From a virus (taxonomy: Duplodnaviria > Caudoviricetes), in the IMG/VR virus record IMGVR_UViG_3300012231_000050, positions 1-24,047 of that record: a stretch of 24,047 nt of DNA; one strand, given 5' to 3'. Every line of letters starts with the position of its first letter. Positions within the stretch are counted from its first letter, which is position 1. Shown here one piece after another: positions 1 through 19,715 of this stretch. Made by a program: the position numbers and the translations under genes. The notes under the pieces are model-generated. The model was not told the origin of the DNA. It searched no databases and saw only the letters and a program-made list of their open reading frames with translations.

Positions 1-28
1 AGGCAGAGGCGTAGGTAGCAATAGGTTG

Positions 29-59
29 AGGATTGGGGAGCTAAATGCTCCCCTTTCCT
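29..59 (+). terminator. Hairpin, probable intrinsic terminator of an upstream unit
   Basis: GGGGAGC(35-41)-TAAAT-GCTCCCC(47-53) followed by TTT; extendable by AGGA/TCCT. It overlaps the ATG at 45. Confidence 0.5.
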
Positions 60-491
60 GAGGCTATGTCACTTAAGAAACTTCGTTCAAGTCCCTTGAT
101 AGAGATTCCCAATCTCGGCCAATATAGCTGGTCTGAACGGCATAGACTTTCGGATATAGAGGGCTTAACTAGGATGGCTACGTGTTCTATTTGTGGTTAC
201 ATCCCAATTAAAAATAAGGGAAGGCTCGCTAACGGAGAACGAAAATGGGTTTGCCTTAATGCAATAACGGCCAGCAAGAAGAAACGTAAAATTGGGAAAT
301 ATACCAAATCGAGTGTTTGTTCCCGATGCGGGTTTGTAGCAGAGCATCTTTGTCAAATCGACGTTCATCATCGAGATGGCGATCCAACAAACAATGATCT
401 AACAAATCTCGAAGATCTCTGCGCAAATTGTCATCGTTATATAACACAGATGGGACGATGCGCTCATGACTACGTACACGGGAGTTCATAA
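45..491 (+). CDS. HNH endonuclease with Zn-binding CxxC motifs
   Basis: CSRCG...IDVHHRDGDPTNNDLTNLEDLCANCH is an HNH motif. The true start may be ATG 66, because ATG 45 lies inside a hairpin. Confidence 0.8.
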   Translation: MLPFPEAMSLKKLRSSPLIEIPNLGQYSWSERHRLSDIEGLTRMATCSICGYIPIKNKGRLANGERKWVCLNAITASKKKRKIGKYTKSSVCSRCGFVAEHLCQIDVHHRDGDPTNNDLTNLEDLCANCHRYITQMGRCAHDYVHGSS

Positions 492-675
492 AACCGATGA
501 TGATCGGTATGAGGCTAAGATCTTTAAGGCCGGTCGCGAGACTCGTATTGGAGTTTATAACTCTGATATTGAGGCTGCAATTGCCTATGATCTTACTGCC
601 GAGGCTGCGCTTGGAGACATCGCACGCCTGAACTTCCCGGAGCGGTCGTCCGTTGCCGCTTCTGACAACGCTTGA
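466..675 (+). CDS. Stand-alone AP2/ERF-type DNA-binding domain protein
   Basis: YTGV...YEAKI...RIGVYNSDIEAAIAYD..A..LG..ARLNFPE follows the AP2 consensus (YxGV...LGxF.t.eeAA.AYD.AA....G..A.lNF). Confidence 0.85.
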   Translation: MTTYTGVHKTDDDRYEAKIFKAGRETRIGVYNSDIEAAIAYDLTAEAALGDIARLNFPERSSVAASDNA

Positions 676-700
676 CACTGACGGCGCAGGGGAGTAGGCT
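672..700 (+). promoter_or_regulatory. Sigma70-type promoter driving the ncRNA array
   Basis: TTGACA(672-677)-17 nt-TAGGCT(695-700). The predicted start near 707-708 coincides with the first hairpin. Confidence 0.75.
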
Positions 701-707
701 GCTCCGC

Positions 708-757
708 GAGCCGGTACGGAGGTAGGTCTACTTCGTGACACACCTTTGTATTGGTTC
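708..757 (+). other. 5' leader hairpin of the ncRNA transcript
   Basis: 16-bp stem with G-U pairs, GAGCCGGTACGGAGGT(708-723)/ACCTTTGTATTGGTTC(742-757). The loop contains TACTTC, as in the array units. Confidence 0.6.
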
Positions 758-774
758 ACTGAACTTTGACAATT

Positions 775-920
775 TTGTGCAGATGCGTAGGAGTGGGTTA
801 CTTCTCATCTGGCGAGGGAGGTTACGGGTTCGAGTCCCGTCACGCAGTTGATCGGCTCTTGCGTGTAGCTCAATTGGTAGAGCGCCAAACGTTACCTAGT
901 CCGCTTAGTTCTCTGCACAA
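775..920 (+). ncRNA. Y RNA unit 1 (YrlA-like) with a complete permuted tRNA-like domain
   Basis: Terminal stem TTGTGCAGA/TCTGCACAA; upper stem GGAGTGGGT/ACCTAGTCC. Payload: TTCTC-ATCTGGC-GAGGG, AGGTT, T-arm ACGGG-TTCGAGT-CCCGT, closed acceptor CACGCAG/TTGCGTG, TA, D-arm GCTC-AATTGGTA-GAGC. T-arm before D-arm is the YrlA arrangement, and a Ro60 gene is nearby. Confidence 0.9.
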
Positions 921-924
921 TATT

Positions 925-1019
925 TCGTAGTGATGCGAGAGAGTGAGTTACTTCTCACCAAAAGCAGGAAGGCTAGTCTTGAGAAACTAGCCACTTACTC
1001 TAAATGGTTCCCACTACGA
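925..1019 (+). ncRNA. Y-RNA-like unit 2
   Basis: TCGTAGTG/CACTACGA; AGAGTGAGT/ACTTACTCT; TACTTC; payload hairpin GGCTAGT-CTTGAGAA-ACTAGCC. Confidence 0.8.
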
Positions 1020-1023
1020 TTAA

Positions 1024-1094
1024 TTGGAACGATGCGAAGGTGTGGGTTACTTCTGCTAAAAGTAAAACCTACACCGTTTTAGTTCTCGTTCCAA
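1024..1094 (+). ncRNA. Y-RNA-like unit 3 (minimal; anticodon stem-loop mimic)
   Basis: TTGGAACGA/TCGTTCCAA; GGTGTGGGT/ACCTACACC; payload TACTT-CTGCTAA-AAGTA. Confidence 0.8.
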
Positions 1095-1096
1095 CT

Positions 1097-1199
1097 TTGG
1101 TTAGATGCGCAGACGTGGGTTACTTCTTGGTAAAGCCGGGGTTTCCCCGTTGGAGGTTCAAATCCTCCAGTCACCTACATCGACTAGTTCTCTAACCAA
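1097..1199 (+). ncRNA. Y-RNA-like unit 4 (variable-arm-like hairpin plus T-arm)
   Basis: TTGGTTAGA/TCTAACCAA; GACGTGGGT/ACCTACATC; CGGGG-TTT-CCCCG followed by GGAGG-TTCAAAT-CCTCC. Confidence 0.8.
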
Positions 1200-1201
1200 C
1201 T

Positions 1202-1289
1202 TGCCCCACTAGGTTGACCTAATTCGTTAGGTTCTCTAGAGATAGATGCGTAGAATTGGGATACTTCGGTTCGACTCCGGGTTGGGGCA
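1202..1289 (+). ncRNA. Y-RNA-like unit 5, circularly permuted scaffold
   Basis: The 3'-half motif (CCTAATTC..GTTC-TCTA) precedes the 5'-half motif (TAGA-TGCG-TA-GAATTGGG-ATACTTC), joined by GAGA. Closed by TGCCCCA/TGGGGCA; T-arm TTCGG-TTCGACT-CCGGG. Confidence 0.7.
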
Positions 1290-1290
1290 T

Positions 1291-1416
1291 GTACCGATGC
1301 GAAGGGTTGGGATACTTCCCGTGATACTGGTTCGAATCCAGTCGGTTACTTCGGTAACTGTGGCAGAAATTGGAAATGCATGGATAAAACTTCCTAGCTC
1401 GTTGTGTTCTCGGTAC
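1291..1416 (+). ncRNA. Y RNA unit 6 (YrlA-like; T-arm, closed acceptor, D-arm)
   Basis: GTACCGA/TCGGTAC; GGGTTGGGA/TCCTAGCTC; ACTGG-TTCGAAT-CCAGT; CGGTTAC-TTCG-GTAACTG; TG-GCA-GAAATTGGAAA-TGC. Confidence 0.87.
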
Positions 1417-1422
1417 TTAATG

Positions 1423-1502
1423 TTTGCGTAGGTGCGTAGGTAAGGGTTACTTCTCACCTGACATGAGGTCAAATACCTTTATCAGTTTGTTCTCTACGTG
1501 GA
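1423..1502 (+). ncRNA. Y-RNA-like unit 7
   Basis: TTTGCGTAGG/TCTACGTGGA; GGTAAGGGT/ACCTTTATC; payload TCTCA-CCTGACA-TGAGG. Confidence 0.78.
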
Positions 1503-1513
1503 CTAGTGCGGTC

Positions 1514-1585
1514 ATGGTCAGGTGCGCAGGTCAAGGGTTACTTCAATTGGTGAAAACACCTTTGACCACAAAGTTCTCTGACCAT
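1514..1585 (+). ncRNA. Y-RNA-like unit 8 (minimal)
   Basis: ATGGTCAGG/TCTGACCAT; GGTCAAGGGT/ACCTTTGACC; payload TTCA-ATTGG-TGAA. Confidence 0.8.
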
Positions 1586-1591
1586 ATATTT

Positions 1592-1759
1592 TAGGCTTGG
1601 CGGGCAGATCACGTAGCGAGCGTGACTGGTAAAAGAAGTGAATCCGAGAAATGAACGGTTAAACTTCTATCTGTTTAGAGTCGCCGCAGTGCTTTAAACA
1701 GAGCGAGCCTAGTGCGGATACAGAGCGGGACTAATCGAGATGCCATATAATTCCCGTTT
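1592..1759 (+). ncRNA. Unidentified pseudoknotted structured RNA, copy A
   Basis: TAGGC..GGGCAGAT..GACTGGT..CGAGCCTA..CGGG..TAATCGAGATG.CA.ATA..CCCGT is shared with 1940-2202; multi-helix junction. Confidence 0.7.
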
Positions 1760-1760
1760 A

Positions 1761-1933
1761 ACGTAGTTGAATGCAGTAGTGGTTAACAACGGCATGTTAT
1801 TCCGGGACGCATGTTCAACGACTACTACTGCATTGAGCTACGTAGGTGCATATAAGTGACACGCATAGGTGAACGGTTCGCGTTCCACACAAATCGCCAC
1901 AACTTCGGTCAATGGGCGAGCCTACGTAGCTCA
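1761..1933 (+). ncRNA. Long-stem structured RNA segment with alternative pairings
   Basis: 24-bp stem 1761-1784/1820-1843 (one mismatch) overlaps a perfect 13-bp stem 1834-1846/1921-1933. Confidence 0.5.
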
Positions 1934-1939
1934 TAAGCA

Positions 1940-2202
1940 ATAGGCATGTCGGGCAGATTGTATCCGGCTTCGGCAAATGTAACGTGGGTGACACAACCCT
2001 ACTACATGGATACGACTGGTGAGGTGGTGAAACACCACTACCGCCTTGAAGTCCACTGAAAGCCGCTGTAGTTTTAGTGTGACAGCAACGACTACACGGA
2101 ATTGAAAGTGCGGGGCGGACGAGCCTATAAAGACGACGGAAGCTATCTGTCACAGCCATGTCGTCGGGTGCGGGGTAATCGAGATGACACATAGGCCCGT
2201 AC
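1940..2202 (+). ncRNA. Unidentified pseudoknotted structured RNA, copy B
   Basis: Same conserved boxes as copy A with expanded arms. TGTGACAG(2078-2085)/CTGTCACA(2147-2154) loop-loop complementarity. The final hairpin is followed by TTTT. Confidence 0.7.
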
Positions 2203-2230
2203 TTTTAATCTACAGAAGAGAGGAGAAAAC

Positions 2231-2248
2231 ATGATGCTAACTAGGTAA
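2231..2248 (+). other. Putative 5-codon minigene (MMLTR)
   Basis: GAGAGGAG-AAAAC-ATG ATG CTA ACT AGG TAA. Confidence 0.4.
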
Positions 2249-2266
2249 TCCTACATAGGAGCAATA

Positions 2267-2506
2267 ATGCTACATGTTCGTGTAGAACCGTCATTTGAGC
2301 CGCTTAGCGTTGAGTATCATGCTCGACGTTTAGTGCGAGAGCAATTCACGCAGGGTAACTTACCTTTCGTAGCTAATGCTACTCGCGCACTTGAACCGGG
2401 TTGGTGCTACGTTTGCGATGAGCGCGCTTGGGTAAAAGTTGGCGGCTACGGTAAGTGTTCTAATTGCCAAGCACTGGCAGAGCGAAATAATAAGCCAGGA
2501 TTCTAA
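2267..2506 (+). CDS. Small Zn-ribbon protein
   Basis: AGGAG RBS; CYVC...CSNC; ends 10 nt before the Ro60 start. Confidence 0.7.
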   Translation: MLHVRVEPSFEPLSVEYHARRLVREQFTQGNLPFVANATRALEPGWCYVCDERAWVKVGGYGKCSNCQALAERNNKPGF

Positions 2507-2516
2507 AGGAGAGGTA

Positions 2517-4067
2517 ATGACTAAATTCTCGGGCAGGCAGGCACGTCCCAACGTGTCTAGTCCGATGCGGACTACGGGAGTACGCGGTACTACGTACGAA
2601 GGTGGTCTAGGTTTTGAGCGCGACGCAAAGACGGAATTATTCCTACTCGCGGTCACTAACATGGTCGCAGAAGATACGTTCTACGAGTCTGGTAAAGATC
2701 GCGATCTTCGCTTCAAAGAACTAGCACATAAGGTTACGGATAAAGATCCGGGTTGGATTCGTAGTTTCATTCCGTATCTCCGAAATGTTATGCAGATGCG
2801 TTCCGCGTCAATCGTACTCGCAGCGCATTACGTCCACGCGAAGGGCGAGAAGGCCCGTGGTGTAGTTGATAGTGCGATGTCTCGCGCCGATGAGCCTGCC
2901 GAGATTCTTGCATACTGGTCGCAGGAGTACGGGAAGAATTTTCCACAGCCGTTAAAGCGTGGGGTAGCAGATGCAGTAGAGCGTCTATACACGGAATACT
3001 CCGCACTGCGGTATGATGGGCAGAGTCGTGCATGGCGCATGGGTGACGTAATTGACCTAGTGCATCCTAAGCCGTTAACTGCGGAGAAGTCCGCACTCTA
3101 CAAGTATCTCCTCGACACACGACATAAGCGCGAGGATATCGGCACTCCCTCCGAAATTCCCATGATTCGTGCATTGAAGTTCGCAAACGATATTCCTGTG
3201 GAGGCTCGTCGTGAGTCGATGCTGAAGAATGGCATTCCACAGGGTATGTCTTGGGAGTCTCTATCCGGTTGGCTACAGGGGCCGATGGATGCAGAGGCGT
3301 GGGAAAATATCATTCCTCAGATGGGTTACATGGCTCTGTTGCGTAACCTTCGAAACTTTGATGAGGCAAACATTTCGAAGGAGTCGCAGAACTACATTCG
3401 TAGCAAGCTGACTAATCCGGAGGAAGTGGCGAAATCTCGACAATTTCCGATTCGGTTCTACTCGGCATGGAAGGCTACGCAGTCTCTCTCGTATGCGCGT
3501 GAAATCGAGGAGGCGTTGGATCTATCCGTCAAGAACATTCCAACGCTGGACGGTCGTACGCTAATCCTAGTCGATGTTTCGGGATCTATGTGGGCACCTA
3601 TTTCTTCTCGCTCGACTGTGCAGCGATATGAACTAGCTGCGCTATTCGGATCTGCCCTCGCACTGCGTAATCGTGGGTCTAGTGATCTTGTCTGGTTCTC
3701 TACTAATTCCTCAAAGATTTGGCCCGCGCATAGTGTCTTGAAGACCATCGATAAGATTGTCGGTAATGGTGGTGGGGGTACGGCAACGTGGCAGGCAGTA
3801 GATACTCACTATAATCACCACGACCGAATCGTGATTATTACCGACGAGCAGGCCCGTGCGTCCTACGGTGCTCGGCGTGAGTACGGAGTGCCGATCTATA
3901 CGTTCAATCTCGCTGGCTATAAGATGGCTCATAACGAACAGGGGGAGAAGGGAAGCTATGTGTTCGGTGGTCTAACTGATGCAGGTTTTGTACTGCTAAA
4001 GGCGCTGGATACGTTGCAGACAGGCGTATGGCCCTGGGACGTTGACAGCCACGATGTAACTGTCTAA
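2517..4067 (+). CDS. rsr: Ro60/Rsr-like TROVE domain RNA-binding protein with C-terminal vWA domain
   Basis: EGGLGFERDAKTELFLLAV, EDTFYE, MGYMALLRNLRN, QFPIRFYSA, MIDAS motif VDVSGSM, GGGT, IITDEQ. AAGGAGAGGT RBS precedes ATG 2517 (the ORF-track start at 2439 is probably too long). Confidence 0.95.
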   Translation: MTKFSGRQARPNVSSPMRTTGVRGTTYEGGLGFERDAKTELFLLAVTNMVAEDTFYESGKDRDLRFKELAHKVTDKDPGWIRSFIPYLRNVMQMRSASIVLAAHYVHAKGEKARGVVDSAMSRADEPAEILAYWSQEYGKNFPQPLKRGVADAVERLYTEYSALRYDGQSRAWRMGDVIDLVHPKPLTAEKSALYKYLLDTRHKREDIGTPSEIPMIRALKFANDIPVEARRESMLKNGIPQGMSWESLSGWLQGPMDAEAWENIIPQMGYMALLRNLRNFDEANISKESQNYIRSKLTNPEEVAKSRQFPIRFYSAWKATQSLSYAREIEEALDLSVKNIPTLDGRTLILVDVSGSMWAPISSRSTVQRYELAALFGSALALRNRGSSDLVWFSTNSSKIWPAHSVLKTIDKIVGNGGGGTATWQAVDTHYNHHDRIVIITDEQARASYGARREYGVPIYTFNLAGYKMAHNEQGEKGSYVFGGLTDAGFVLLKALDTLQTGVWPWDVDSHDVTV

Positions 4068-4070
4068 GCT
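4042..4070 (+). promoter_or_regulatory. Sigma70-type promoter overlapping the Ro60 3' end
   Basis: TTGACA(4042-4047)-17 nt-TAAGCT(4065-4070). Confidence 0.7.
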
Positions 4071-4075
4071 TCTCC

Positions 4076-4186
4076 GCGTCTTCCCTCCCCCAATCCCCTG
4101 GGAAGACGTATGGGCGAGAGAGGATCATTTTGAAAAGTCCAAACCCCCGGACAATTCATAGCTTCTGATCCTCTCTCGCTATTTTT
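4076..4186 (+). ncRNA. Putative small RNA or leader with two C-rich-loop hairpins and a terminator
   Basis: GCGTCTTCCC/GGGAAGACGT with loop TCCCCCAATCCCCT; GGCGAGAGAGGATCA/TGATCCTCTCTCGCT with apical AAACCCCC, then ATTTTT. Confidence 0.55.
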
Positions 4187-4210
4187 GTAATCGAGTAGGA
4201 GGTAGCTCTC

Positions 4211-4915
4211 ATACTGCGTCTAGTCGTGGTACTAAGCACAATATCACTACTATGTGCGATCAACACGGCAACACCGCAAGGAGAGGCAAGATCACAAGTG
4301 AAGAAGCAACAATGCCCCGACGTTGGTAGGGGCATTGACTATTTCAAACACTCGACTTGGAGATGGCAAAAGTTGCGAGGCGTTCCGCTCACAAAGACAA
4401 GCAAGAGACAGATTGCGCCTCATGCTTGTGGCTACGCACGATATGTAGCAAACTTGTGGATGGACCGTTCGTGGGAAGCTAGAGTAAAATACGAGAAATG
4501 GGTAAAAGATCGCACACTCCCTGTAATTAATGATTGGTTGACTGCGATCAGATGGGTCCAACGAATCTATCCCGGTACTTACGATTGGTTGTATTCGATT
4601 TCCGATCGTGAGGGTGGTCATAGCTATTGGGTATGGTTCGGTGGGAGGCGCTGGTCCGGCTACCATATAGGTGATGATTACCTCGGAGCCGATACGGTAG
4701 GCGGGTGGATGCAATTTAGGTATTCGACATTCGCTCCGTATTGGCGACACGCACAGGAGAACTTGAGAGGGCGGGGGTTCATCATCCCCAATTTCAAAAT
4801 GCCTAGTGCTGGCGGTGCTAACCAATATGCGCCATGGTTGTCGCCGATGGGTCAGGCACTAACGGCTGGTTACATGAAGTGGTCAGGTAGAGAAGGATGT
4901 CATTGGTGTCTATAA
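4211..4915 (+). CDS. Secreted lysozyme-like (SLT/Rpf-like transglycosylase) protein
   Basis: Hydrophobic signal-like N-terminus; ISDREGG...GGWMQFRYSTF...SPMGQA...GREGCHW resembles the transglycosylase E-x-G/G-x-x-QF-x-x-ST pattern. Start uncertain (ATA 4211 or GTG 4226). Confidence 0.65.
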   Translation: MLRLVVVLSTISLLCAINTATPQGEARSQVKKQQCPDVGRGIDYFKHSTWRWQKLRGVPLTKTSKRQIAPHACGYARYVANLWMDRSWEARVKYEKWVKDRTLPVINDWLTAIRWVQRIYPGTYDWLYSISDREGGHSYWVWFGGRRWSGYHIGDDYLGADTVGGWMQFRYSTFAPYWRHAQENLRGRGFIIPNFKMPSAGGANQYAPWLSPMGQALTAGYMKWSGREGCHWCL

Positions 4916-4953
4916 TCTCCGAAGGAGTCACATCAGTAATTTGATGCGACTAT

Positions 4954-5457
4954 GTGAGTTCAGCTAGCCCGATATACGAGCAAGAAGTTTGCCCCGCTTG
5001 TGGGCATTTCGTAGACGAACTAGATCCAAATAGTGGATTCTGTTTTGAATGCATAGGATCTACAAAATCTCGATGCCTGGGGTGCAACCGTCTATTTCTA
5101 CGTGACCAATCACATCGACGGTTGTGCCCCTGGTGTCGTGAGGAACGTTGGCTGGAACGTAATGCAGATCGACTTGAAGAATACCTCGCAATCGGTAGTT
5201 CCTTCGACTTTGCTAAGCGTGAGGTTTACTACGAGAATCGACCTATATGCCTATCCTGCGGAGAGCCAATTAAAGGTGCTAGGAATGGAGCAAATTTTTG
5301 CCATCGTACTACTGCCTGCCGGAGATGGCAACGCAGATATCGAACGCTACGCGAGCAGAACATGAAACTTCGTATTCTAGATCCCACGAAACAAGCGTTG
5401 GCCCAAGTCTCTGCCGAAATTTTCGCTAACAAACACAGTATGAATCTACAGGAGTAA
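4954..5457 (+). CDS. Multi-Zn-finger hypothetical protein
   Basis: CPAC, CFEC, CLGC, CPWC and CLSC...C..C motifs. Confidence 0.75.
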   Translation: MSSASPIYEQEVCPACGHFVDELDPNSGFCFECIGSTKSRCLGCNRLFLRDQSHRRLCPWCREERWLERNADRLEEYLAIGSSFDFAKREVYYENRPICLSCGEPIKGARNGANFCHRTTACRRWQRRYRTLREQNMKLRILDPTKQALAQVSAEIFANKHSMNLQE

Positions 5458-5459
5458 TT

Positions 5460-5615
5460 TTGACAGCCGAAGAGTTTCGAGTTGACTTGAAACGATTCAT
5501 CGAGGACGATTACGGTTTTGAAGTAGAGTTACAAGGCAAGCGTCTAGTCGTGCGGGACGGTGAAGAGAAGCCATTGATCATTTTGGTAACCCGAGCGCGG
5601 GTAACCCGAGAGTGA
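5460..5615 (+). CDS. Small hypothetical protein (51 aa, not in the ORF track)
   Basis: AGGAG then TTG start; MTAEEFRVDLKRFIEDDYGFEV...; GTGA overlap with the next gene. Confidence 0.7.
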   Translation: MTAEEFRVDLKRFIEDDYGFEVELQGKRLVVRDGEEKPLIILVTRARVTRE

Positions 5616-5821
5616 AAAGATCGTCAGACGAAAAAGTTCGGGTGAGCACTCCGCGATGCGTGAATTGCTGGCAGCCTATGTTATGGGTTGTCGGTAGCAA
5701 GACTCGTATGACGTGTGAGTGTGGGCATCGTGCAGCAATCTTCCCACCATCCGTACCAGATGCGGGTTGGCTAGCACAAGTACCTACGACTCTCGATATT
5801 TTAAGAGGTATTAATGAATGA
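5612..5821 (+). CDS. Small Zn-ribbon protein
   Basis: CVNC...CECGH; coupled overlaps at both ends. Confidence 0.65.
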   Translation: MKRSSDEKVRVSTPRCVNCWQPMLWVVGSKTRMTCECGHRAAIFPPSVPDAGWLAQVPTTLDILRGINE

Positions 5822-6294
5822 CTAATGAAACAAAGGGAAAAAGCACTAATCTTCTAGTACGCTTGGCCAACCGTGATGGGGGGTGGAAATGTTACTATTG
5901 CAAAATGGATCTGTTAGATGTTTCTAAGATGACGAGGCAAGATATTCAGATAAATAGACTAGAGGAGAATTACCCAACCAAAGATCACTTGATTCCTTTG
6001 TCTCGAAACGGTGCAAACAATTTCGACAACCTCGTATTGAGTTGCTATACGTGTAACCATACGAAAGCAGATAAAACTCCTGAAGAGTTTGCGCCCGTTG
6101 GACCTGGATCAATGATCGATCCAGCGTATCGGAAGTGGATTGATCGTTCTCCTAGCGCAGCGGAAAAGAAGGAGGAACAGAGAATACTCAAGCTTGCACG
6201 TAAGAGATTAAAAATGACTAACAAGCAACTTCAAGAATCCGCTCTGGACGCACAATTCAATTTGATCAAGCCAAAATCGGGTGATTGGAAATAA
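5818..6294 (+). CDS. HNH endonuclease (McrA-like)
   Basis: RDGGWKCYYC...TKDHLIPLSRNGANNFDNLVLSCYTCNHTK. Confidence 0.9.
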   Translation: MTNETKGKSTNLLVRLANRDGGWKCYYCKMDLLDVSKMTRQDIQINRLEENYPTKDHLIPLSRNGANNFDNLVLSCYTCNHTKADKTPEEFAPVGPGSMIDPAYRKWIDRSPSAAEKKEEQRILKLARKRLKMTNKQLQESALDAQFNLIKPKSGDWK

Positions 6295-7842
6295 ATGGTA
6301 AGCCTTAAATTTACACCCGTTGAGGAGAAGTATGAGCCTCATGAGTTCCAGCTTGAAGATCTGGAGTTCCTTAACAAGTTAGACTACTCGGCCAACTGGT
6401 CGGAGATGGGCACGTTTAAAACTAGCACCGGCCTGTGGTGGATTGAGAAAAAAACTGAGGAGCTTCCCGCTGCGAATGTTTTGATCGTCACCACGAAGTC
6501 GGGTAAGGGTGCGTTCTTCGAATGCATCCCTCGATGCTTAAAGACAGACGAGTGGAAGATCTTCAATGTGAGTTCTCGCATTACAGAAGAAGTGATTCTC
6601 CAAGACTTACGGGTAGAATCTGATATTGATGATCTAATACATGCGCTTATGGATCATGACCAAAAAGTTATGGTCTTGTCTCACTATCACGTCTTTGAGA
6701 ATCGTTCGGTACTCAAAGACATTTTCGAAGAGGGAATTGCTCGTAATGCCCTTGAGTGGGATGTTGTATTAATCGATGAAGCACATAAGATCAAATCGAA
6801 AGATGTACAGTGGGGTAGAAATCTAAAGAAGCAGTCTAAGTACGCACGCTTCCGGCATGCCATGACGGGGACGGGCTTCGTTAACAATCCCGCTGAGCTA
6901 TACTCGATTCTAAATTTCCTTCGTCCGGACGTATACACGTCGTATTGGAGGTTCCGTAGGAAGTATTGTGAAGAGGAAAACTGGACAGGCTACGCGAAGA
7001 TCGTAGGCGTACGCGAATCGAGGATCGATGAGTTCATTGCCATGCGCCGGTCCTTTGGTCCACGTAGGAGAATGGCTGAAGTACACAAAGACATCTTAGA
7101 GCCAATCTTTCATGATGTTGAAGTAGAGCTTAATCCGACGCAGAAACGTATGTATAAGGAGATTGTTAAAGAACTTAGAATGCTCGATCAGCAGGGTGTT
7201 CCTATCCATTCACCGAACGTTGTTTCGCAACTTCAACGTCTACGACAGATTGCAGTAGCTACGCCCGAACTAGTCGATTCGTACTACGATCCGAAACTGG
7301 ATCGTCTTGTTCAAGAAGTTAGACTTACGGAACCATCAAGTAAACTCGATGCAGTAATGGAGTTGCTTGAAGGTATGGAGTGGGATGTCGAGGCAAGACA
7401 GCAAGTGGTCGTGTTCTCAAATTTCCGTGATCCATTAGAGCTATTGAAGAAACGGCTAGACGAACAACGGGACAAGAACGGCCGATTACTTCGTGAGGCT
7501 ATTCCGTATATCCACATGGAGCAAAAAGATTCAGAGCAAACACGTTTCGAAAAGTGGAAGATTCAATGGCCTAAGAAGGAAGAACAACTATTTCTCTCGA
7601 CTATTGATCTTGGCGGCGAATCGATTAACCTATCTTCGGCACAGTATTGTATCTTCCTAGACAGAAGTTGGAGTCCGGCCAAAAATCTACAAGCTGTGGG
7701 TCGCATCTATCGCCCCGGCCAAAAGAACCAAGCCGAAATAATCTACATCAATGCAAAGGCTACGGTTGATAAGAGAGTTCTTGATAATGTGACTCAAAAG
7801 GTTGGCTGGTTCAATCTATTGTTCAGTGATGAGGAGGGATAG
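6295..7842 (+). CDS. SNF2-related (SF2) DNA helicase
   Basis: EMGTFKT, IDEAH, MTGT, PAELYSILNFL, SSKLDAV, VVFSNF, GESINL, WSPAKNLQAVGRIYRPGQ. Confidence 0.92.
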   Translation: MVSLKFTPVEEKYEPHEFQLEDLEFLNKLDYSANWSEMGTFKTSTGLWWIEKKTEELPAANVLIVTTKSGKGAFFECIPRCLKTDEWKIFNVSSRITEEVILQDLRVESDIDDLIHALMDHDQKVMVLSHYHVFENRSVLKDIFEEGIARNALEWDVVLIDEAHKIKSKDVQWGRNLKKQSKYARFRHAMTGTGFVNNPAELYSILNFLRPDVYTSYWRFRRKYCEEENWTGYAKIVGVRESRIDEFIAMRRSFGPRRRMAEVHKDILEPIFHDVEVELNPTQKRMYKEIVKELRMLDQQGVPIHSPNVVSQLQRLRQIAVATPELVDSYYDPKLDRLVQEVRLTEPSSKLDAVMELLEGMEWDVEARQQVVVFSNFRDPLELLKKRLDEQRDKNGRLLREAIPYIHMEQKDSEQTRFEKWKIQWPKKEEQLFLSTIDLGGESINLSSAQYCIFLDRSWSPAKNLQAVGRIYRPGQKNQAEIIYINAKATVDKRVLDNVTQKVGWFNLLFSDEEG

Positions 7843-8039
7843 TGACGGACGCCCCGATAAATGGCATCGCCAAAATGCTTCAAGATTTGCCGCGTGTAAC
7901 CCGCGAGCAACAAGAGATTGACGGCACTTGTCCTCGCTGCAATGGACTAGGTGGTATCTATGCGGGTCACCCTGACGGCATTCGGGTGTTCGTGCGCTGC
8001 CCTGCTAGGTGCGTCAACGGGAAGGTGACGACATCGTGA
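7842..8039 (+). CDS. Small Zn-finger protein (CxxCxGxG type)
   Basis: CPRCNGLG...CPARCVNGKV; GAGGAGG RBS. Confidence 0.7.
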   Translation: MTDAPINGIAKMLQDLPRVTREQQEIDGTCPRCNGLGGIYAGHPDGIRVFVRCPARCVNGKVTTS

Positions 8040-8311
8040 ACAAGGATACACGCGACGAGTGTGCGCAGTTAATTGGCACACAGGTCACACCACTTCTAGA
8101 GAGCGGGTCGCTACCGCCGATGTGGCCGTTTTGGCTACCACTTGTCGATGCTATCGCAGAACGAATCATAGACTCCCGCGTAGGGCATCTAGAGCGGGGG
8201 CTAGTCTGGATCCAGGAGTTCGCAGCCAAGATGACGGATACGCACACGGGCTTCGTTCACGTTGAGCGACGCGCTCGTACTGCGCTCGCAGAAAGGACGA
8301 TGACTAAGTGA
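8036..8311 (+). CDS. Hypothetical protein
   Basis: GTGA overlap with the previous gene suggests a start at 8036 within ORF 8009-8311. Confidence 0.65.
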   Translation: MNKDTRDECAQLIGTQVTPLLESGSLPPMWPFWLPLVDAIAERIIDSRVGHLERGLVWIQEFAAKMTDTHTGFVHVERRARTALAERTMTK

Positions 8312-8679
8312 TTTCTACATTAGAAGACATGAAAGAAATTCTTGATGAGGTTGCCTACCTTAACTGGCATTTCATTCTAACGCAAGATCAAGCAGGCAAA
8401 CCTTATCTACAAGTTGCATTTACAGCACGCGATATCGTATCGGGAGAGTCTTGTACGCAAAAGGGACGCAAGTGGAAGCTGTCTTGGTATATGACCAGAA
8501 GTGAAATTGTCTATACAGCTTTCAAGGCGGTGCTAACCGCCGTAGAGCATGAGACGCGCGAATCTTTTCGCTACAAGAATCGAACGATCTTCAGTCCACA
8601 CTTTGACGTAGATAAACTAGTGGAATTCGCCGGAGAAGCGGATAATATTGACATGCGAACAGGAGTGTGGGTTGCCTGA
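8308..8679 (+). CDS. Phage hypothetical protein
   Basis: 123-aa ORF in the coupled gene string; GRKWKLS..MTRSEIVYTAFKAVLTAVEHE. Confidence 0.75.
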   Translation: MISTLEDMKEILDEVAYLNWHFILTQDQAGKPYLQVAFTARDIVSGESCTQKGRKWKLSWYMTRSEIVYTAFKAVLTAVEHETRESFRYKNRTIFSPHFDVDKLVEFAGEADNIDMRTGVWVA

Positions 8680-8803
8680 CATAGCTTGGAAGTGGCGTAA
8701 GTGGACTTTTGGATTCTGGTGGGATCCCGAGAATTGGACTCAGTTCGGCATTGATTTCGGACCGCTCGAAATTGTATGGCGCAGCCCAGGTTATAGACCC
8801 TAA
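8672..8803 (+). CDS. Small Trp-rich protein (43 aa, not in the ORF track)
   Basis: AGGAG-N6-TTG; MPDIAWKWRKWTFGFWWDPENWTQFGIDFGPLEIVWRSPGYRP fills the gap. Confidence 0.6.
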   Translation: MPDIAWKWRKWTFGFWWDPENWTQFGIDFGPLEIVWRSPGYRP

Positions 8804-8812
8804 AGGAGAGCA

Positions 8813-9088
8813 ATGCTTTTCATGATTTGTCGTAAGGACGCAGTTGATCGGAACATTAAGACGAGTGAATTATTCCCTGTGATCGTAGAGTATCCTGAAG
8901 ACACGCCCCACGACATTATCGTAGAAGAGACGCTACACAAAAAATGGGCAGGCTATTTCCCGAAGGACAAGGCATACTATTGTATTCCGATGGGCGACGC
9001 TTCTCTAGTAAGTTTTAGGCCCATACCCCAACCAAAGTACGATGTTATCGTACAACGACTTTCTGATGGTATATACTATGAGCGTTAG
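8813..9088 (+). CDS. Hypothetical protein
   Basis: AAGGAG RBS; 91-aa ORF. Confidence 0.75.
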   Translation: MLFMICRKDAVDRNIKTSELFPVIVEYPEDTPHDIIVEETLHKKWAGYFPKDKAYYCIPMGDASLVSFRPIPQPKYDVIVQRLSDGIYYER

Positions 9089-9090
9089 GA

Positions 9091-9318
9091 TTGGACATGG
9101 CGATTGAATGGGATAAACCGATTGAATGGGAAGCTCGTTTGGGTAATAATCTGATCCTCGTAAAGTACATCACGGCTCCCGGAACGAGTTATATCTATCG
9201 ATTGCCGTCAATTAAGGGGCGTGTCACATGGTACGCACGCAACGCTGGTAAGAAGCGATGGCTAAAACAATACTCGGAGACTGAGAACAGCATGCGGATA
9301 TTGAGCGCCCATGATTGA
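9091..9318 (+). CDS. Hypothetical protein
   Basis: Fills the gap; start may be ATG 9097. Confidence 0.6.
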   Translation: MDMAIEWDKPIEWEARLGNNLILVKYITAPGTSYIYRLPSIKGRVTWYARNAGKKRWLKQYSETENSMRILSAHD

Positions 9319-9784
9319 GCCTGGGCACATTGCTCCCCCTGCGGAGCACTTTGAATTAGGGGATAGGGTAGAGTACCACCACAGGGCTTGTGTAGCGAGA
9401 ATTGCGAATAACAAACATATCCTTGGGATTGGTCGCTTTCCCTCAAATCCGGCTAGTTGGCATTTCGTAAGGGAGGGTAGTCCAGGAATACCTTGGTTCG
9501 AGGGTAAAGATCCCTTGAACATTCGGGCGGATCGAAACGTACGGAATAAGACGATCATCATATGGCCCGAAGACGGAGGCGGTGTTGTAATCGGATTGGT
9601 TCGAAGGGAAATTGGTTTGTCCGTTTCGCCAAGTAGTTACAATACTCTGGACGGATACGATCATGACCCCGGATACTTTGCGGTCGAAGAACGCCATTGG
9701 CTTTACGCGATTAAACAAAGTATCTCAGGGGTGAATTTTGTATTTGCGCCTATGTGGGCTACAAAGGTGGTGGAAAATGACTAG
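9311..9784 (+). CDS. Hypothetical protein
   Basis: 157-aa ORF overlapping both neighbours. Confidence 0.7.
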   Translation: MIEPGHIAPPAEHFELGDRVEYHHRACVARIANNKHILGIGRFPSNPASWHFVREGSPGIPWFEGKDPLNIRADRNVRNKTIIIWPEDGGGVVIGLVRREIGLSVSPSSYNTLDGYDHDPGYFAVEERHWLYAIKQSISGVNFVFAPMWATKVVEND

Positions 9785-10217
9785 CCTAGGATTTACTGGC
9801 TCTCGCTCAGGACCGACAATAGGACAGATCGCGGCGGTAGAAACTTTACTTGTGTCCTACCAACCTACGAGTGTCCATCATGGTGATTGTGTCGGCGCTG
9901 ATGAATGGTTTCATGAGACAGTTATTGCCTCTTGCCGAAAGCACAAGTCGCTAATTCACATACATCCTCCAATTGATCCTAAGTATCGCGCATGGTGCGA
10001 AAAGCTAGGATCTAGAGATAGGATGGTTATTCATGAACCGCTTCCGTACCTGAAGCGTAACCAACGCATAGTAGATTTTTCCCATGTTTTAGTAGCTTGC
10101 CCTTCTACGAATAAGGAAGTAGTACGCTCAGGTACCTGGGCTACGGTACGGAGAGCGAGAGATAAAGGAATTCGTATTCACATCGTCTACCTTAATGGTA
10201 ACATTAAGCTGGAATAG
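9777..10217 (+). CDS. SLOG/DprA-YpsA-like Rossmann-fold nucleotide-binding protein
   Basis: LGFTGSR, VHHGDCVGAD, RNQRIVD, SGTWATVRRA; ATG 9777 preferred. Confidence 0.75.
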   Translation: MTSLGFTGSRSGPTIGQIAAVETLLVSYQPTSVHHGDCVGADEWFHETVIASCRKHKSLIHIHPPIDPKYRAWCEKLGSRDRMVIHEPLPYLKRNQRIVDFSHVLVACPSTNKEVVRSGTWATVRRARDKGIRIHIVYLNGNIKLE

Positions 10218-10238
10218 TTGTCAACAAAGAAAACGGCC

Positions 10239-10267
10239 TTGACACGCGAGGCCGAAGGTGACAGACT
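10239..10267 (+). promoter_or_regulatory. Putative promoter
   Basis: TTGACA-17 nt-CAGACT with an extended TG, in an intergenic gap. Confidence 0.55.
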
Positions 10268-10415
10268 GCCCCGGCTCACGGGGTTAGCGGTTGCTGGTGC
10301 CACCCTGGGGAGTGGACTGACAGGCCCGACGGGATTCGGCACACGGTAATCAGGTGTCGATATTAATTCGTAGACTTGCCTAGGTCTACGTCTCCAACTG
10401 GAGGAGTCCATAACC

Positions 10416-10709
10416 ATGAGCTATCCTGTTCCAATCCTTAGAATCGAGGTAGAGGGCGTAAAGCACTCTATTGTTCAGCATCTTGCGACGAGTGCGCAAG
10501 AGTTCGCTGAAATCGTTCGGGAAGAAGTTGAACAGTTCGATATCGAAGCAAACATTCGCCATCAAGTGAAGATGGCTGTTCCCCGCATTCTACAAGAGAC
10601 GATAGACGAGATGGTGGACGAGATTGGTCGAGAGACGGCACAGTGGGTAAGGCAAGAGTTTACACCAGTCATTCAGGAAGCATACACGAAAGCGTATAAG
10701 AGTCAGTGA
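10416..10709 (+). CDS. Hypothetical protein
   Basis: GGAGGAG RBS; 97-aa ORF. Confidence 0.75.
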   Translation: MSYPVPILRIEVEGVKHSIVQHLATSAQEFAEIVREEVEQFDIEANIRHQVKMAVPRILQETIDEMVDEIGRETAQWVRQEFTPVIQEAYTKAYKSQ

Positions 10710-11062
10710 AACTTCCAATAGTTGTTTCAAAACGTAGTAAGATCGACAAACTGTATCATACCGTCGAGCAGGAACGTAAAGCGCGAATCAGTGCTGAACA
10801 AGCTGCGGCCAAGATGGGACATAGAGTGCGTAAAGGTCTACTGGACCTTGGGGATCTTGCACAGGAGCTTAGGCTTCTTACCGTTCACCTTACACGATCC
10901 CGTGAACGCCGATCCGTTCGATTCGAATTTGAATTAGCCGACGACGTTCTAATCGAAGGCTTTCGACGCAGCGATCGTGGGGAATATCTGCGCCAAGCCG
11001 TAGCACATCATGTAGAGATGGCATTCTACAAGAATCTAGATATGAAAGATTTAATCCGATGA
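10706..11062 (+). CDS. Hypothetical protein
   Basis: GTGA and ATGA coupling. Confidence 0.7.
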   Translation: MKLPIVVSKRSKIDKLYHTVEQERKARISAEQAAAKMGHRVRKGLLDLGDLAQELRLLTVHLTRSRERRSVRFEFELADDVLIEGFRRSDRGEYLRQAVAHHVEMAFYKNLDMKDLIR

Positions 11063-11427
11063 AAGTCGTTGAACCTGGACACATCTACGATTTGCGTCAG
11101 CTTGACGGTGATGGTACTCCCTTGCGATTAGTCTTTGTCAATCGTGAAGAGGGCGACGAGCATGAAGGTACGCAGACGCAAGAAGTTTTGCGTGTCTGCA
11201 TTGACATGCTCGATTCTCTCATTGATCGGACTAACCATTGTGATGATTGTTTGCGATGGGAAGGTAACGATCACATCATCAAGAATATGACGGAAGCTCA
11301 GCGTCATCTACGTCTAGCGATACTTGGTCATGAAGCGCGAAAACTAGAGCGTGACATGGAGAAGGAACGCATTAGTGTAGAAGATATTCCAATCGGCGAC
11401 GATGGACATTTTATGGTGTGCGACTAG
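11059..11427 (+). CDS. Hypothetical protein, possibly Acb2/Tad1-like helical hairpin
   Basis: EGTQTQEVL...LIDR...EGN..I....EA...L.....R pattern; family call tentative. Confidence 0.6.
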   Translation: MKVVEPGHIYDLRQLDGDGTPLRLVFVNREEGDEHEGTQTQEVLRVCIDMLDSLIDRTNHCDDCLRWEGNDHIIKNMTEAQRHLRLAILGHEARKLERDMEKERISVEDIPIGDDGHFMVCD

Positions 11428-11428
11428 A

Positions 11429-11590
11429 ATGAAGATTACTCAGGAAAGCCACAAGGTGGGGATTGCTAGACTCGATGCGATCTTTGGGTGGAATTTCGAA
11501 GCGCATAAGCCCCGTGCGAAGCATTCGCGACCTAAGTCAAAGAGGCTTAGGCGAAAACGAGCACATGAAGCACGCCGGAAGAACAGATGA
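11429..11590 (+). CDS. Small basic protein
   Basis: Arg/Lys-rich C-terminus; ATGA overlap with the next gene. Confidence 0.55.
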   Translation: MKITQESHKVGIARLDAIFGWNFEAHKPRAKHSRPKSKRLRRKRAHEARRKNR

Positions 11591-12801
11591 CGTGGGCACC
11601 GATTATAATTCCTAGTAAATGGGATATTATTCCCATCCATGCTAGTGATGTTGCGTCGTTCATGCGATGTCGACGCTACTGGTCGTGGTCTTCGCCCACC
11701 AGAAGTAATCTCCGCCGTAGAGTAGAACTTCACGGAATCAATCCGAACCTCTGGTATGGATCGGGTATCCATTGGGCTTTGGAGAAAGCTTACAATCCCC
11801 TGCTTAAGCGTGATCCAGTCGAAGCATTTACGACATGGTTCCAATGGCAGTGGAAGGGTGGGCATGTTCCAGAGGATATGCTGAACGAAACGTATGATCC
11901 AAATCCAGTAAAGACTAAAGATGGATATACGATTCGGGGATTGGAAGATCTACTACCACAGGCGGATGAAGAGGAATTTCTAGGGTATCGTGATCTAGGA
12001 ATCGGCATGATGACTTTCTACAAAGAGTACGCAAAGAAGAATGATGACTTTGAAGTAGTCGCCGCCGAGTCTCAATTCAGTGTTCCGCTTGGTTTTAGCG
12101 TTAAGGATGTTCGTCAAGATTCCCCGAACTACGGTGAGAAACTTGAAGCGCATCTTCGCGGTAAGCGCGACGCAATCATTTACTACCCCGAACGCAAAGA
12201 GCCACGTCTACAGTACGGGATACTAGAGAATAAGACAGCAGCCAAGGTGGACGAGGACTACTTCCTTAAGTTGGAGAACGATCCACAGTGTTCTACGTAT
12301 ATCGTTGCCTCGGTCCATGAGGCGCGGACGTATGGGTATCCGTGGGAGCACATCGAAGAGGTTCTCTACAATGCGCTAAGGAAGGCGTATCCAAAACCTC
12401 CGACTATTACTAGTCATGGATTCCCTTCTCTTAACCGCGCACAAGAATCTACGACCGCTGATATGTTCGTAGAGTGTGTGAAGGAACTTGGTCTAGAGGA
12501 TTGGTATCACGAAGATCCGAAGGCTCAGAACTACTATGAGTATTTGGTCGGGATGGGTGATGGTAATTTCATTCAGCGCGACATAGCTACGCGCAATCCT
12601 CATCAGATCGATACCCACTTCAAGGAGCTTAAGGCTATAGCAAAAGAGATGCTAAATCCTAAGACTCCGATCTATAAGCACCCGTCCGGCATGTCGTCCT
12701 GTACCAAGTGCGCTTTCCGCGCTCCATGTCTAGCGCACGACGATGGTAGTGACTGGCAGGAAATGTTAGTCCAAGGTTACGAACAGAATCGTGGGCGATA
12801 A
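11587..12801 (+). CDS. PD-(D/E)XK Cas4/RecB-like exonuclease with Fe-S cysteines
   Basis: FMRCRR, GSGIHWALE, E.QF, GKRD...ENKT, Q..TY, C-terminal CTKCAFRAPC. Confidence 0.88.
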   Translation: MTWAPIIIPSKWDIIPIHASDVASFMRCRRYWSWSSPTRSNLRRRVELHGINPNLWYGSGIHWALEKAYNPLLKRDPVEAFTTWFQWQWKGGHVPEDMLNETYDPNPVKTKDGYTIRGLEDLLPQADEEEFLGYRDLGIGMMTFYKEYAKKNDDFEVVAAESQFSVPLGFSVKDVRQDSPNYGEKLEAHLRGKRDAIIYYPERKEPRLQYGILENKTAAKVDEDYFLKLENDPQCSTYIVASVHEARTYGYPWEHIEEVLYNALRKAYPKPPTITSHGFPSLNRAQESTTADMFVECVKELGLEDWYHEDPKAQNYYEYLVGMGDGNFIQRDIATRNPHQIDTHFKELKAIAKEMLNPKTPIYKHPSGMSSCTKCAFRAPCLAHDDGSDWQEMLVQGYEQNRGR

Positions 12802-13118
12802 TGAAGTACGCATGGGGAGAATTAAAGAACGGCGGAATACGCATTTGCCCTTGCGGAGAAGTTACGTTGGAAGACGATATGCACTTGTGTTCGCTAACGG
12901 AGGAACCTAAAATGACAGCGAATCCGATCAATTCCATCGAAGATCGTAATACGTGGATTGATTTCGGGCGACAAGCATACTTGATCTTTCTCGGAGCGCA
13001 AGAGGAAGGTGCTTCCGAACCGGACGCAATCAAGATGGTGAGTGCTTTCTACAAGGGAATGTTCGTGGGTGCCGCTGAAGCTAATCAAGATGAAGAAGGA
13101 GAGAAGAAGGATGTCTGA
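12801..13118 (+). CDS. Hypothetical protein
   Basis: TAATG coupling; alternative in-frame start at 12912 with a GGAGG RBS. Confidence 0.6.
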   Translation: MKYAWGELKNGGIRICPCGEVTLEDDMHLCSLTEEPKMTANPINSIEDRNTWIDFGRQAYLIFLGAQEEGASEPDAIKMVSAFYKGMFVGAAEANQDEEGEKKDV

Positions 13119-13587
13119 CGGTTCGAACATGGGTATTACAGCAAATCGGGCACTTGGTACAATAATCGGTAACGCAGATCAACCGAGTGAGAATGAAAAA
13201 GCTTCACGCGAAGACGTACTAGCGCGTGTTATGGCTGCGCCTTCACCCCTTGAAGGCGAATCCATCTACTCCCGACCGGGAAAAGATGCCTATTCTCTAG
13301 CCGCAGATTGTATTGCAAAAGCATTCCTACTAGTTGAGGCTGAGGCTCCGGGTACACTGGAAATCGAGCTTTATTACACAAAAGAGAACACTGATATTGA
13401 ATCCTTATGGGGCATGAAGAAAGATGCTGCGACGGCAAGTTGGGACGCAGTAGTTGATAGATGGCCGACATTTGATAATTGGCTCGGCGGTGCTACTGGT
13501 TTCCAAGTCGGTTTTGCGTATAACACGGCGCGATGGCTTAATGAGAAACCGATTGTAGGTAACCCTGCGATCATGACAATTGGATGA
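13111..13587 (+). CDS. Hypothetical protein
   Basis: AGGAG upstream of ATG 13111, inside ORF 13042-13587. Confidence 0.7.
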   Translation: MSDGSNMGITANRALGTIIGNADQPSENEKASREDVLARVMAAPSPLEGESIYSRPGKDAYSLAADCIAKAFLLVEAEAPGTLEIELYYTKENTDIESLWGMKKDAATASWDAVVDRWPTFDNWLGGATGFQVGFAYNTARWLNEKPIVGNPAIMTIG

Positions 13588-13844: not shown

Positions 13845-13915
13845 AGGTTGGCACCGCTCCAAACGATCTAGTAAACATTTCGATTCAAAGCTCCGTAGAA
13901 TTGAGGAAGCTGTAG

Positions 13916-14647: not shown

Positions 14648-14668
14648 AAGAAAAGGAGAAAGAACAAA

Positions 14669-15160: not shown

Positions 15161-15174
15161 GTAGTAAGAAGTAA

Positions 15175-15198
15175 AGGGGGCTACTTCGGTAGCCCCCT
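15175..15198 (+). terminator. Stable UUCG hairpin after the SSB gene (terminator or processing signal)
   Basis: AGGGGGCTAC-TTCG-GTAGCCCCCT; weak U-tract. Confidence 0.6.
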
Positions 15199-19713: not shown

Positions 19714-19715
19714 AT

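Follow-up and report, generated by a model that had tools for sequence, protein, structure and literature searches.

An uncatalogued structured RNA module, present in two diverged copies and probably expressed, between the Y RNA array and the Ro60 gene of an uncultured phage

Two segments of an uncultured phage genome, termed A (positions 1592–1759) and B (1940–2202), share short sequence blocks in the same order and fold into one common plan. They are considered to be copies of an orphan RNA module which is real, probably expressed and not catalogued, and they lie between an array of Y RNA-like units and the gene for Ro60. Existing descriptions of phage Ro60 loci list Ro60 and Y RNAs; here, the row of Y RNAs carries other elaborate RNAs too.

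Genomic Setting

The window, i.e., the whole stretch of DNA that was analysed (24,047 nt), is a 24-kb fragment of the phage; its IMG/VR record (IMGVR_UViG_3300012231_000050) has a CheckV completeness of 39%, and the DNA runs in which it occurs carry the habitat label freshwater sediment. The features in question are as follows.

45–675, plus strand: HNH/AP2-like gene pair
about 705–2230, plus strand: gene-free stretch
705–1586, plus strand: Y RNA-like array of about 8–9 units, with the repeated Ro60-binding-stem motif GYGCGNAG..GGGWTACTTC ... GTTCTCT
2231–2248, plus strand: 5-codon minigene with a strong Shine-Dalgarno site in front
2267–2506, plus strand: small Cys-rich open reading frame (79 aa); in Pfam only a sub-threshold C1_1 zinc-finger-like match
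2517–4067, plus strand: Ro60 (TROVE) gene (Pfam TROVE, E 3.3e-16)
plus strand: replication genes for a SNF2 helicase, a PD-(D/E)XK nuclease, a primase and a family A DNA polymerase (Pfam)

The order on the plus strand is Y RNAs, A, a hairpin with a further module (M), B, and then Ro60. A regular expression for GGGWTACTTC matched seven times (795, 1044, 1117, 1258, 1309, 1444 and 1535), and several units contain the T-arm-like sequence GGTTCGANTCC. The YrlA model of Rfam (RF02553, cut-off 69) gave sub-threshold matches at 794–906 (43.7 bits, E 5.7e-8) and 1296–1411 (32.6 bits). Hits to the Y RNA motif (GYGCGNAG..GGGWTACTTC) were confined to 795–1535, and none of the hits of either kind fell within A or B. 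The nearest Ro60 from an isolate is the Ro-like RNA-binding protein of Streptomyces phage BRock, with 45% identity. BRock, GiJojo and Atuin are actinophage isolates with tRNA arrays, and their Ro60 gene lies within the tRNA array; in Rabbitrun, tRNAs are found downstream of the Ro60 gene.

Scanning of positions 1–4400 for promoters yielded four promoter-like sites against 5.0 expected, which is no evidence either way, and scanning of the same region for terminators yielded no site. A protein gene on the minus strand (1815–2192, 125 aa) was considered and rejected; it had no Pfam family at E ≤ 0.01, and the neighbouring genes are all on the plus strand.

Shared Motifs and Common Fold of Copies A and B

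All coordinates and motifs that the original prediction had given for A and B proved correct on re-reading. TAGGC (1592–1596 in A, 1941–1945 in B), CGGGCAGAT (at 1601 and 1950), GACTGGT (at 1624 and 2014), CGAGCCTA (at 1704 and 2120, and also at 1917 in module M) and TAATCGAGATG (at 1732 and 2176) follow each other in the same order in both copies. The best chain of k-mers (k ≥ 7) that the two copies share in collinear order is 35 nt long. Of 5000 dinucleotide shuffles of B, 2 attained this length; against 162 real segments of the window, the maximum was 30 nt. Minimum free energy (MFE) folding gave the following elements.

1592–1759, plus strand: copy A, 168 nt; MFE −54.7 kcal/mol, z −2.86 (3 of 200 shuffles as good)
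1592–1599/1704–1711: closing stem P1 of A, with junction J1/2 UUGGCGGG
1605–1607/1626–1628 and 1609–1614/1620–1625: P2 of A, A1608 bulged
1634–1639/1663–1668: P3 of A
1670–1680/1692–1702: P4 of A, with CCGCA (1684–1688) in the loop; the tail has UGCGG (1713–1717)
1723–1730/1752–1759: P5 of A, with a 21-nt loop (1731–1751)
1940–2202, plus strand: copy B, 263 nt; MFE −91.3 kcal/mol, z −2.36 (2 of 200 shuffles as good)
1940–1945/2123–2128: closing stem P1 of B, with junction J1/2 AUGUCGGG
1954–1956/2016–2018 and 1958–1965/2008–2015: P2 of B, A1957 bulged, with a branched tip and a cUUCGg tetraloop (1968–1973)
2023–2029/2033–2039: P3 of B
2042–2048/2111–2117: P4 of B, with an inner hairpin (2067–2073/2090–2096) whose loop contains UGUGACAG (2078–2085)
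2132–2138/2159–2165: tail hairpin of B, its loop containing CUGUCACA (2147–2154)
2168–2174/2196–2202: P5 of B, with a 21-nt loop (2175–2195)

The two copies were folded separately and arrived at one common plan. Both have the closing stem UAGGC/GCCUA with a CGA junction, the stem having additional pairs on its inner side in A and on its outer side in B, and both have a first arm of the form GGG-CAG-A-stem-CUG-GU, in which the A is bulged and the stem is variable. The two further arms have no common sequence and differ in length; the tail is single-stranded in A and a hairpin in B. The 3' hairpin consists in both cases of 7–8 base pairs and a 21-nt loop with 16 of the 21 positions identical, and in the stems flanking this loop the pairs are kept despite changes from A-U to U-A and from G-U to G-C. 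Thus, blocks of 9, 7, 8 and 11 nt are intact between the copies, the arms are unrelated with length differences of up to 40 nt, and the conserved blocks correspond to junctions and loops. The original prediction had pointed out that nucleotides of junctions and loops are conserved and the arms are unrelated, and this pattern is real according to both the k-mer chain and the MFE folds.

For each copy alone, the z-score is modest. The complete block (1586–2215) folded with a z-score of −4.75, and none of 20 shuffles was as stable. Folding was strand-specific, with −221 kcal/mol for the plus strand versus −188 kcal/mol for the minus strand (z −2.47); the plus strand is therefore more stable by 33 kcal/mol, which fits the presence of G-U pairs and an RNA with the same orientation as the Y RNAs and Ro60. 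The assignment of A and B to the strand of the Y RNAs and Ro60 was supported in this way. Two cUUCGg tetraloops, one in M (1903–1908) and the one in B given above, are a further mark of structural RNA.

Hairpin H and Module M

The two copies are separated by additional structure. The region 1755–1945 had a z-score of −3.83, and none of 200 shuffles folded as well. Two elements were discerned in it.

1761–1834, plus strand: long hairpin H, between A and M; core stem 1770–1784/1820–1834 (MFE and centroid fold)
1835–1932, plus strand: module M, closed by GAGCUACGUAGGU/GCCUACGUAGCUC (centroid fold, shared k-mers)

Module M ends in GCGAGCCUA, a 9-mer identical to that of A, and contains UGAACGGUU, which is found also in the loop of P3 (the second arm) of A. 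It has CAUAUAA in common with the terminal loop of A, and GUGACAC..CAUAGG in common with the terminal loop of B. Motifs of the GUGACA type occur four times in M and B (1856, 1988, 2079, 2185), and a complementary loop occurs once (2147–2155). The view that there are two copies holds for A and B, and the count was incomplete, since a third module shares the end-piece and loop motifs; the block is a row of at least three modules with a common UAGG...CGAGCCUA frame.

Long-Range Pairings

The original prediction had described the RNA as doubly pseudoknotted, with two long-range pairings that covary. The complementarities are present as written, and they were evaluated by shuffling of one partner. 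The first pairing, between the loop of the third arm and the tail, comprises 5 bp in A (CCGCA/UGCGG, p = 0.07) and 8 bp in B (UGUGACAG/CUGUCACA, p = 0.005); it holds up moderately and is accepted as plausible. In B it would be a loop-loop contact, the partner being located in the loop of the tail hairpin. The second pairing, of J1/2 with the terminal loop, has 4 bp in A (UGGC/GCCA, p = 0.12) and 4 bp in B (UGUC/GACA, p = 0.24), values which are within chance. It is weak because in A it overlaps the innermost two pairs of P1 and in B the MFE helix 1947–1950/2118–2121, and because B also offers another register of equal length (4 bp, AUGU/ACAU). Its covariation rests on a single exchange of G-C to U-A.

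Searches for Known Families and Homologues

The statement that the RNA matches no known family was upheld: with Rfam 15 (4227 models), there were no matches at gathering score in the entire window, and of the five matches to positions 600–2400 at E ≤ 10, none was within 1592–2202. ARAGORN detected no tRNA or tmRNA genes in the window. The manA model (RF01745; cut-off 55.2 bits, conserved GGGaGUGaCUGAAUAA core and outer pseudoknot) had no match in 600–2400 at E ≤ 10. The identical search detected manA in a relative (L005, 57.4 bits), thus the method works on sequences of this kind.

Comparison of 1400–2450 with 50,697 phage records by blastn ("distant" setting) gave no match. Scanning of IMG/VR with the loop motif returned at least 119 stretches (52 of the 64 parts), none of them with the hairpin context among the matches listed. 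With the 5' motif, at least 119 stretches were obtained both for a P2 gap of 10–40 nt (40 of the 64 parts) and for a gap of 41–71 nt (32 of the 64 parts); the best candidates among the matches listed for these two scans were situated inside open reading frames or were without the downstream motif. A complete scan of IMG/VR with the 17-nt 5' block AGGCNTGNCGGGCAGAT produced 53 stretches, and GAGCCT was present downstream in none of the 53.

A covariance model built from a single sequence (R1) recovered B as its best non-self match in the window (15.6 bits, E 0.005), by way of the 3' hairpin only. When the same model was run on 11 related loci, on the loci of 4 isolates and on 5 whole related records, no match reached E ≤ 10, a result to be read as that of a single-sequence model, since MAFFT misaligns the unequal arms of A and B and distant homologues may have escaped. 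The designation as a candidate new class was not borne out, as no homologue was found outside the window by blastn against the phages, by the scans of IMG/VR and of prokaryote genomes (genome_contigs), or with R1 on the relatives. It follows that there is no independent covariation, and the "family" consists of two paralogues and a partial third. The complement of the invariant loop, CAUCUCGAUUA, had no site on the plus strand of the window that was better than two mismatches.

The loop-pattern scan of 596 Gb of prokaryote genomes (genome_contigs) gave nine stretches, seven of which were unrelated and two of which were in tmRNA genes (143.8 and 140.6 bits), one from an Opitutia metagenome-assembled genome and one from another such genome. 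In these, 25 of 26 nt of the PK3-PK4 segment are identical to positions 2172–2197 of B. In these two tmRNAs (RF00023), the segment has other pairing partners, GAGAUG being paired with an upstream CAUCUC which B lacks; likewise, A and B are without the tRNA-like domain and the tag reading frame, and no tmRNA model matched at E ≤ 10. When 29 further tmRNAs of the same order were sampled, a similar segment occurred in one, with 5 mismatches, and it was not conserved in the other 28. Between the window and the two genomes there was no other similarity beyond tRNA-like T-arms which could have indicated a host. According to a rough estimate, p is about 0.01 for a pre-chosen position, and about 13 such matches are expected over any 26-mer of the block; the match may be due to chance.

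In full-text literature searches, no paper was found that describes a structured RNA other than Y RNAs at phage Ro60 loci. Y RNAs alone are mentioned in passages of Chen et al. 2014 (PMC4201824) and of the article on Ro60 of phage phiLo (PMC12135203).

Related Ro60 Loci

Guided by Ro60, nine viral loci (5 + 4), seven metagenome loci (one of them the window itself) and the loci of four isolate phages (BRock, GiJojo, Rabbitrun, Atuin) were collected. The Ro60 proteins of the nine viral and the six further metagenome loci were 39–77% identical to that of the window. The relatives with 77% identity have Y arrays, followed by three small open reading frames in place of A, M and B. In the locus L005 (Ro60 72% identical), a manA RNA of 177 nt (RF01745; 3680–3856, E 2.8e-14; bit score and cut-off as above) lies between two Y units. 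Evidently, the slot holds different elaborate RNAs in sister phages.

Evidence from RNA Libraries

Parts of 1500–2600 are present in 13 public runs, two of which (X4 and X6) are on record as metatranscriptomes. Their contigs were placed on 500–4300 and on 1500–21400.

X6, on the ncRNA array: 862–1012, 1305–1511 and 1966–2197; all three well-fitting pieces are Y RNAs and B
X6, elsewhere in 1500–21400: a single 39-nt piece with 5 mismatches
X4, on the array: 731–1126, 1355–1434 (twice), 1405–1522 and 1891–2199; depth 4–6
X4, elsewhere in the next 19 kb: six pieces of 149–208 nt, depth 2–3, most with many differences

Transcription of B, which the original prediction had presumed, is thus supported by contigs from two metatranscriptome libraries, these being unstranded, with depth given per contig and carry-over of DNA possible. 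Almost no RNA-library contigs were located on Ro60. The coverage lacks 1523–1890 and hence A, and this gap shows nothing about the expression of A. Both contigs of B end at 2197–2199, within the 3' strand of P5 and with no loose end; a contig from a DNA run continues through this site (2102–2540). The stops are a weak hint of an RNA end. They fit P5 as the 3' terminus, with CUUUUAA following it.

The strain in X4 differs from the window at 1880, 1885, 1933, 1982, 1984 and 2002, i.e., in M and B. These variants are in loops or linkers, or change one G-C to G-U, or affect both members of a pair, and the fold energy of B is unchanged with them (−90.1 versus −91.1 kcal/mol). With the variants at 1984 and 2002, an internal loop of equal energy takes the place of the two pairs, which is not a clean compensation. 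Two DNA runs (X5, X9) did not cover A or B and provided no further natural variants.

Interpretation and Alternatives

With moderate confidence, A and B (with M) are taken for diverged modules of a non-coding RNA which probably exists as a stand-alone stable molecule and whose junction and 21-nt loop would dock a protein or RNA partner. The intact junction and loop blocks, the free arms, the strand-specific stability, the UUCG loops and the presence in RNA libraries together argue for a functional fold under selection. In such a scheme, the 3' hairpin would be the 3' end of the RNA, and the modules would be cut out of, or terminated from, the transcript of the array. The loop of the third arm would pair with the tail, as loop to single strand in A and as a loop-loop kiss in B, and the invariant nucleotides of junction and loop might form a binding surface, to judge from the conservation pattern. 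Candidate partners could be the phage Ro60 RNP, the 79-aa Cys-rich protein or a host factor.

Alternatively, B (and A in tandem with it) could be a cis-acting leader or attenuator, similar to a riboswitch, with the 3' hairpin as a terminator that controls read-through to the small open reading frames and Ro60. This is unlikely, although several observations would suit it. The distance from the end of B is 29 nt to the strong Shine-Dalgarno site with its minigene and 315 nt to Ro60; its P5 is followed by CUUUUAA; the RNA contigs of two studies stop there, with almost none over Ro60; and variable arms with conserved junctions are typical of aptamers. In addition, manA, which is present in the array of a relative, was first proposed to be cis-regulatory (Weinberg et al. 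2010, PMC2864571). However, A precedes more RNA modules and no open reading frame, and the manA RNA of the relative stands between Y RNAs and not ahead of a gene. The 21-nt loop of the supposed terminator is the most conserved element, which is unusual for an expression platform; loops of the P5 type are far larger than those of usual terminators, the terminator scan was negative, and an alternative anti-terminator pairing was not identified.

A higher-order assembly, in which A, M and B multimerise via loop-loop kisses and perhaps provide a scaffold or cage with Ro60-Y RNPs, is regarded as improbable. A relative has a manA RNA in the equivalent slot, and manA RNAs form 8-, 10- and 60-mers in vitro through kissing loops according to a cryo-EM preprint (bioRxiv 10.64898/2026.07.01.735769). 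The loop-loop complementarity of 8 nt in B (p as above) and the four GUGACA-type motifs in M and B versus one complementary loop would be compatible with kissing contacts as well. On the other hand, a single molecule can satisfy the same complementarities, and there is no similarity to manA in sequence or by model at E ≤ 10. By analogy, it is conceivable, but doubtful, that A, M and B constitute a phage-made assembly, in which the contacts are provided by UGUGACAG/CUGUCACA, by CCGCA/UGCGG and by the invariant 21-nt loop. Such an assembly would fill, independently and with an unrelated RNA, the role that the cage-forming manA has in the same slot of a sister phage, and with the Ro60-Y particles it might capture or shield RNA during infection.

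It is similarly hard to believe that the block has no function of its own and is a duplicated spacer with leftover similarity and hairpins. Homologues were found in none of the collections searched and close relatives lack the block, as such a spacer would suggest. However, drift after a duplication would hit all positions alike, and the blocks of 9, 7, 8 and 11 nt described above remained intact next to unrelated arms, which is unlike a decaying duplicate; moreover, the fold is strongly strand-specific, and B is found in RNA libraries at a depth similar to that of Y RNAs. A ribozyme, as considered in the original prediction, which by self-cleavage or ligation would process the array transcript, is very unlikely: the compact multi-helix fold, the invariant junction nucleotides and a polycistronic ncRNA array in need of processing would be in accord with it, but no Rfam ribozyme model (hammerhead, twister, twister-sister, pistol, hatchet, HDV-like, glmS) scored even at E ≤ 10, the X4 contig starts at 1891 and passes unbroken across the 5' end of B, and processing of the RNase P/Z type is offered by the tRNA-like Y units.

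The diverged copies of a probable stable RNA are thus the preferred reading. Sister phages differ in the slot, which contains manA, the orphan fold or small open reading frames. If functional, A and B would represent a new RNA with two natural variants, which are identical in the nucleotides of junction and loop and have arms unrelated to each other, and one of which is present in RNA libraries. Also, the puzzling RNAs of the manA type would become linked to machinery for RNA quality control.

Comparison with Known Systems

Like A and B, manA (RF01745; PMC2864571) is phage-borne, has multiple helices and was described with predicted pseudoknots and loop-loop contacts, its size being roughly 180 nt. 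It shows no similarity to A and B in sequence or covariance model, and it has another helix plan and other conserved nucleotides. Hundreds of members of manA exist; of A and B, none beyond the window.

Modular evolution, with short motifs that frame variable arms, is a feature common to A and B and the Y RNAs (YrlA, RF02553, PMC4201824; Yrl1/2 of Thermus phage phiLo, PMC12135203). In YrlA, the 5' and 3' ends together make up the Ro60-binding stem, for which the conserved 5' motif is given as GNCGAAN0-1G (PMC4201824). With the Y units of the window, A and B share the strand and the array upstream of Ro60, and B has a similar depth of RNA-library contigs. They differ from these units in being without the Ro60-binding stem motif and the T-arm-like module; compared with Y RNAs they are 1.5–3 times longer, and have the closing stem UAGGC/GCCUA instead.

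ROOL (RF03087) and GOLLD are large ornate RNAs associated with phages; their stretches are gene-free, highly structured and adjacent to tRNA or tRNA-like genes. The likeness is in the genomic niche, the block 1592–2202 being about 610 nt long; the difference is that the block has no Rfam match and folds as three or four separate modules and not as one large RNA. Ornate phage RNAs beside tRNA-like genes are already known; what is new is this uncatalogued fold without a known relative.

Putative transcription signals and metatranscriptome contigs

A promoter-like element, TTGACA/TTGACT followed after a 17-nt spacer by TAGGCT, is conserved at positions 674–702 of the window and at 2644–2672 of L005, the related viral locus, immediately 5' of the first Y RNA unit in each, and may be the promoter of the array. 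Its -10-like hexamer, TAGGCT, recurs as the opening six nucleotides of copy A, the first of the two paralogous folded RNAs. Beyond Ro60, a predicted hairpin structure occupies 4113–4186, starting 46 nt past the stop codon: its 14-bp stem (GCGAGAGAGGAUCA/UGAUCCUCUCUCGC) encloses about 40 nt, and UAUUUUUG comes next. It is likely the operon terminator, and was overlooked in the terminator scan because of its long loop.

The Y RNA units at 731–1126 and 1355–1522 were found in contigs from two metatranscriptome libraries. One strain variant, with 7 substitutions and a 1-nt deletion across 731–1126, was present, and such sequences are useful for analyses of Y RNA covariation.

Open reading frames at the start of the window

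Two overlapping reading frames were noted:

45–491, HNH-like ORF, overlapping the ORF at 466–675
466–675, second ORF, its product judged by eye to be AP2-like

Together they may represent a homing-endonuclease-type gene that a change of frame has divided in two; a Pfam search with the pair (45–675) gave only a sub-threshold match to HNH_3.

Related modules and a tmRNA-like segment

The module M (1835–1932), located between copies A and B, shares its GCGAGCCUA end-piece, as well as several motifs in the loops, with both, while its interior is different; A, B and M appear to be built from reusable pieces. The terminal loop region of copy B (2172–2197) showed identity in 25 of 26 nt to the PK3–PK4 segment of tmRNA. 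The matching tmRNAs are those of an Opitutia metagenome-assembled genome (MAG) and one other MAG (positions 1501–1526 of stretch L386 and 236–259 of stretch L390). The segment is not conserved among other tmRNAs of that order: a version of it, with 5 mismatches, was present in one of 29. The identity could be due to coincidence or mimicry, or could be a clue to the host.

Comparison with known systems

In three actinophage isolates, the Streptomyces phages BRock and GiJojo and the Arthrobacter phage Atuin, the Ro60 gene lies within large tRNA arrays, and several hundred unannotated bases are located immediately 5' of it (e.g., 4421–5000 of the BRock locus).

At 3680–3856 of L005, a manA RNA (RF01745) was detected with 57.4 bits (cut-off 55.2; E = 2.8e-14), flanked by two Y RNA units and immediately 5' of a Ro60 gene whose product is 72% identical to that of the window. 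Marine cyanophages and Photobacterium are the sources from which manA RNA was described, as an element of 5' UTRs. In L005 it belongs to the Y RNA array of a sediment phage.
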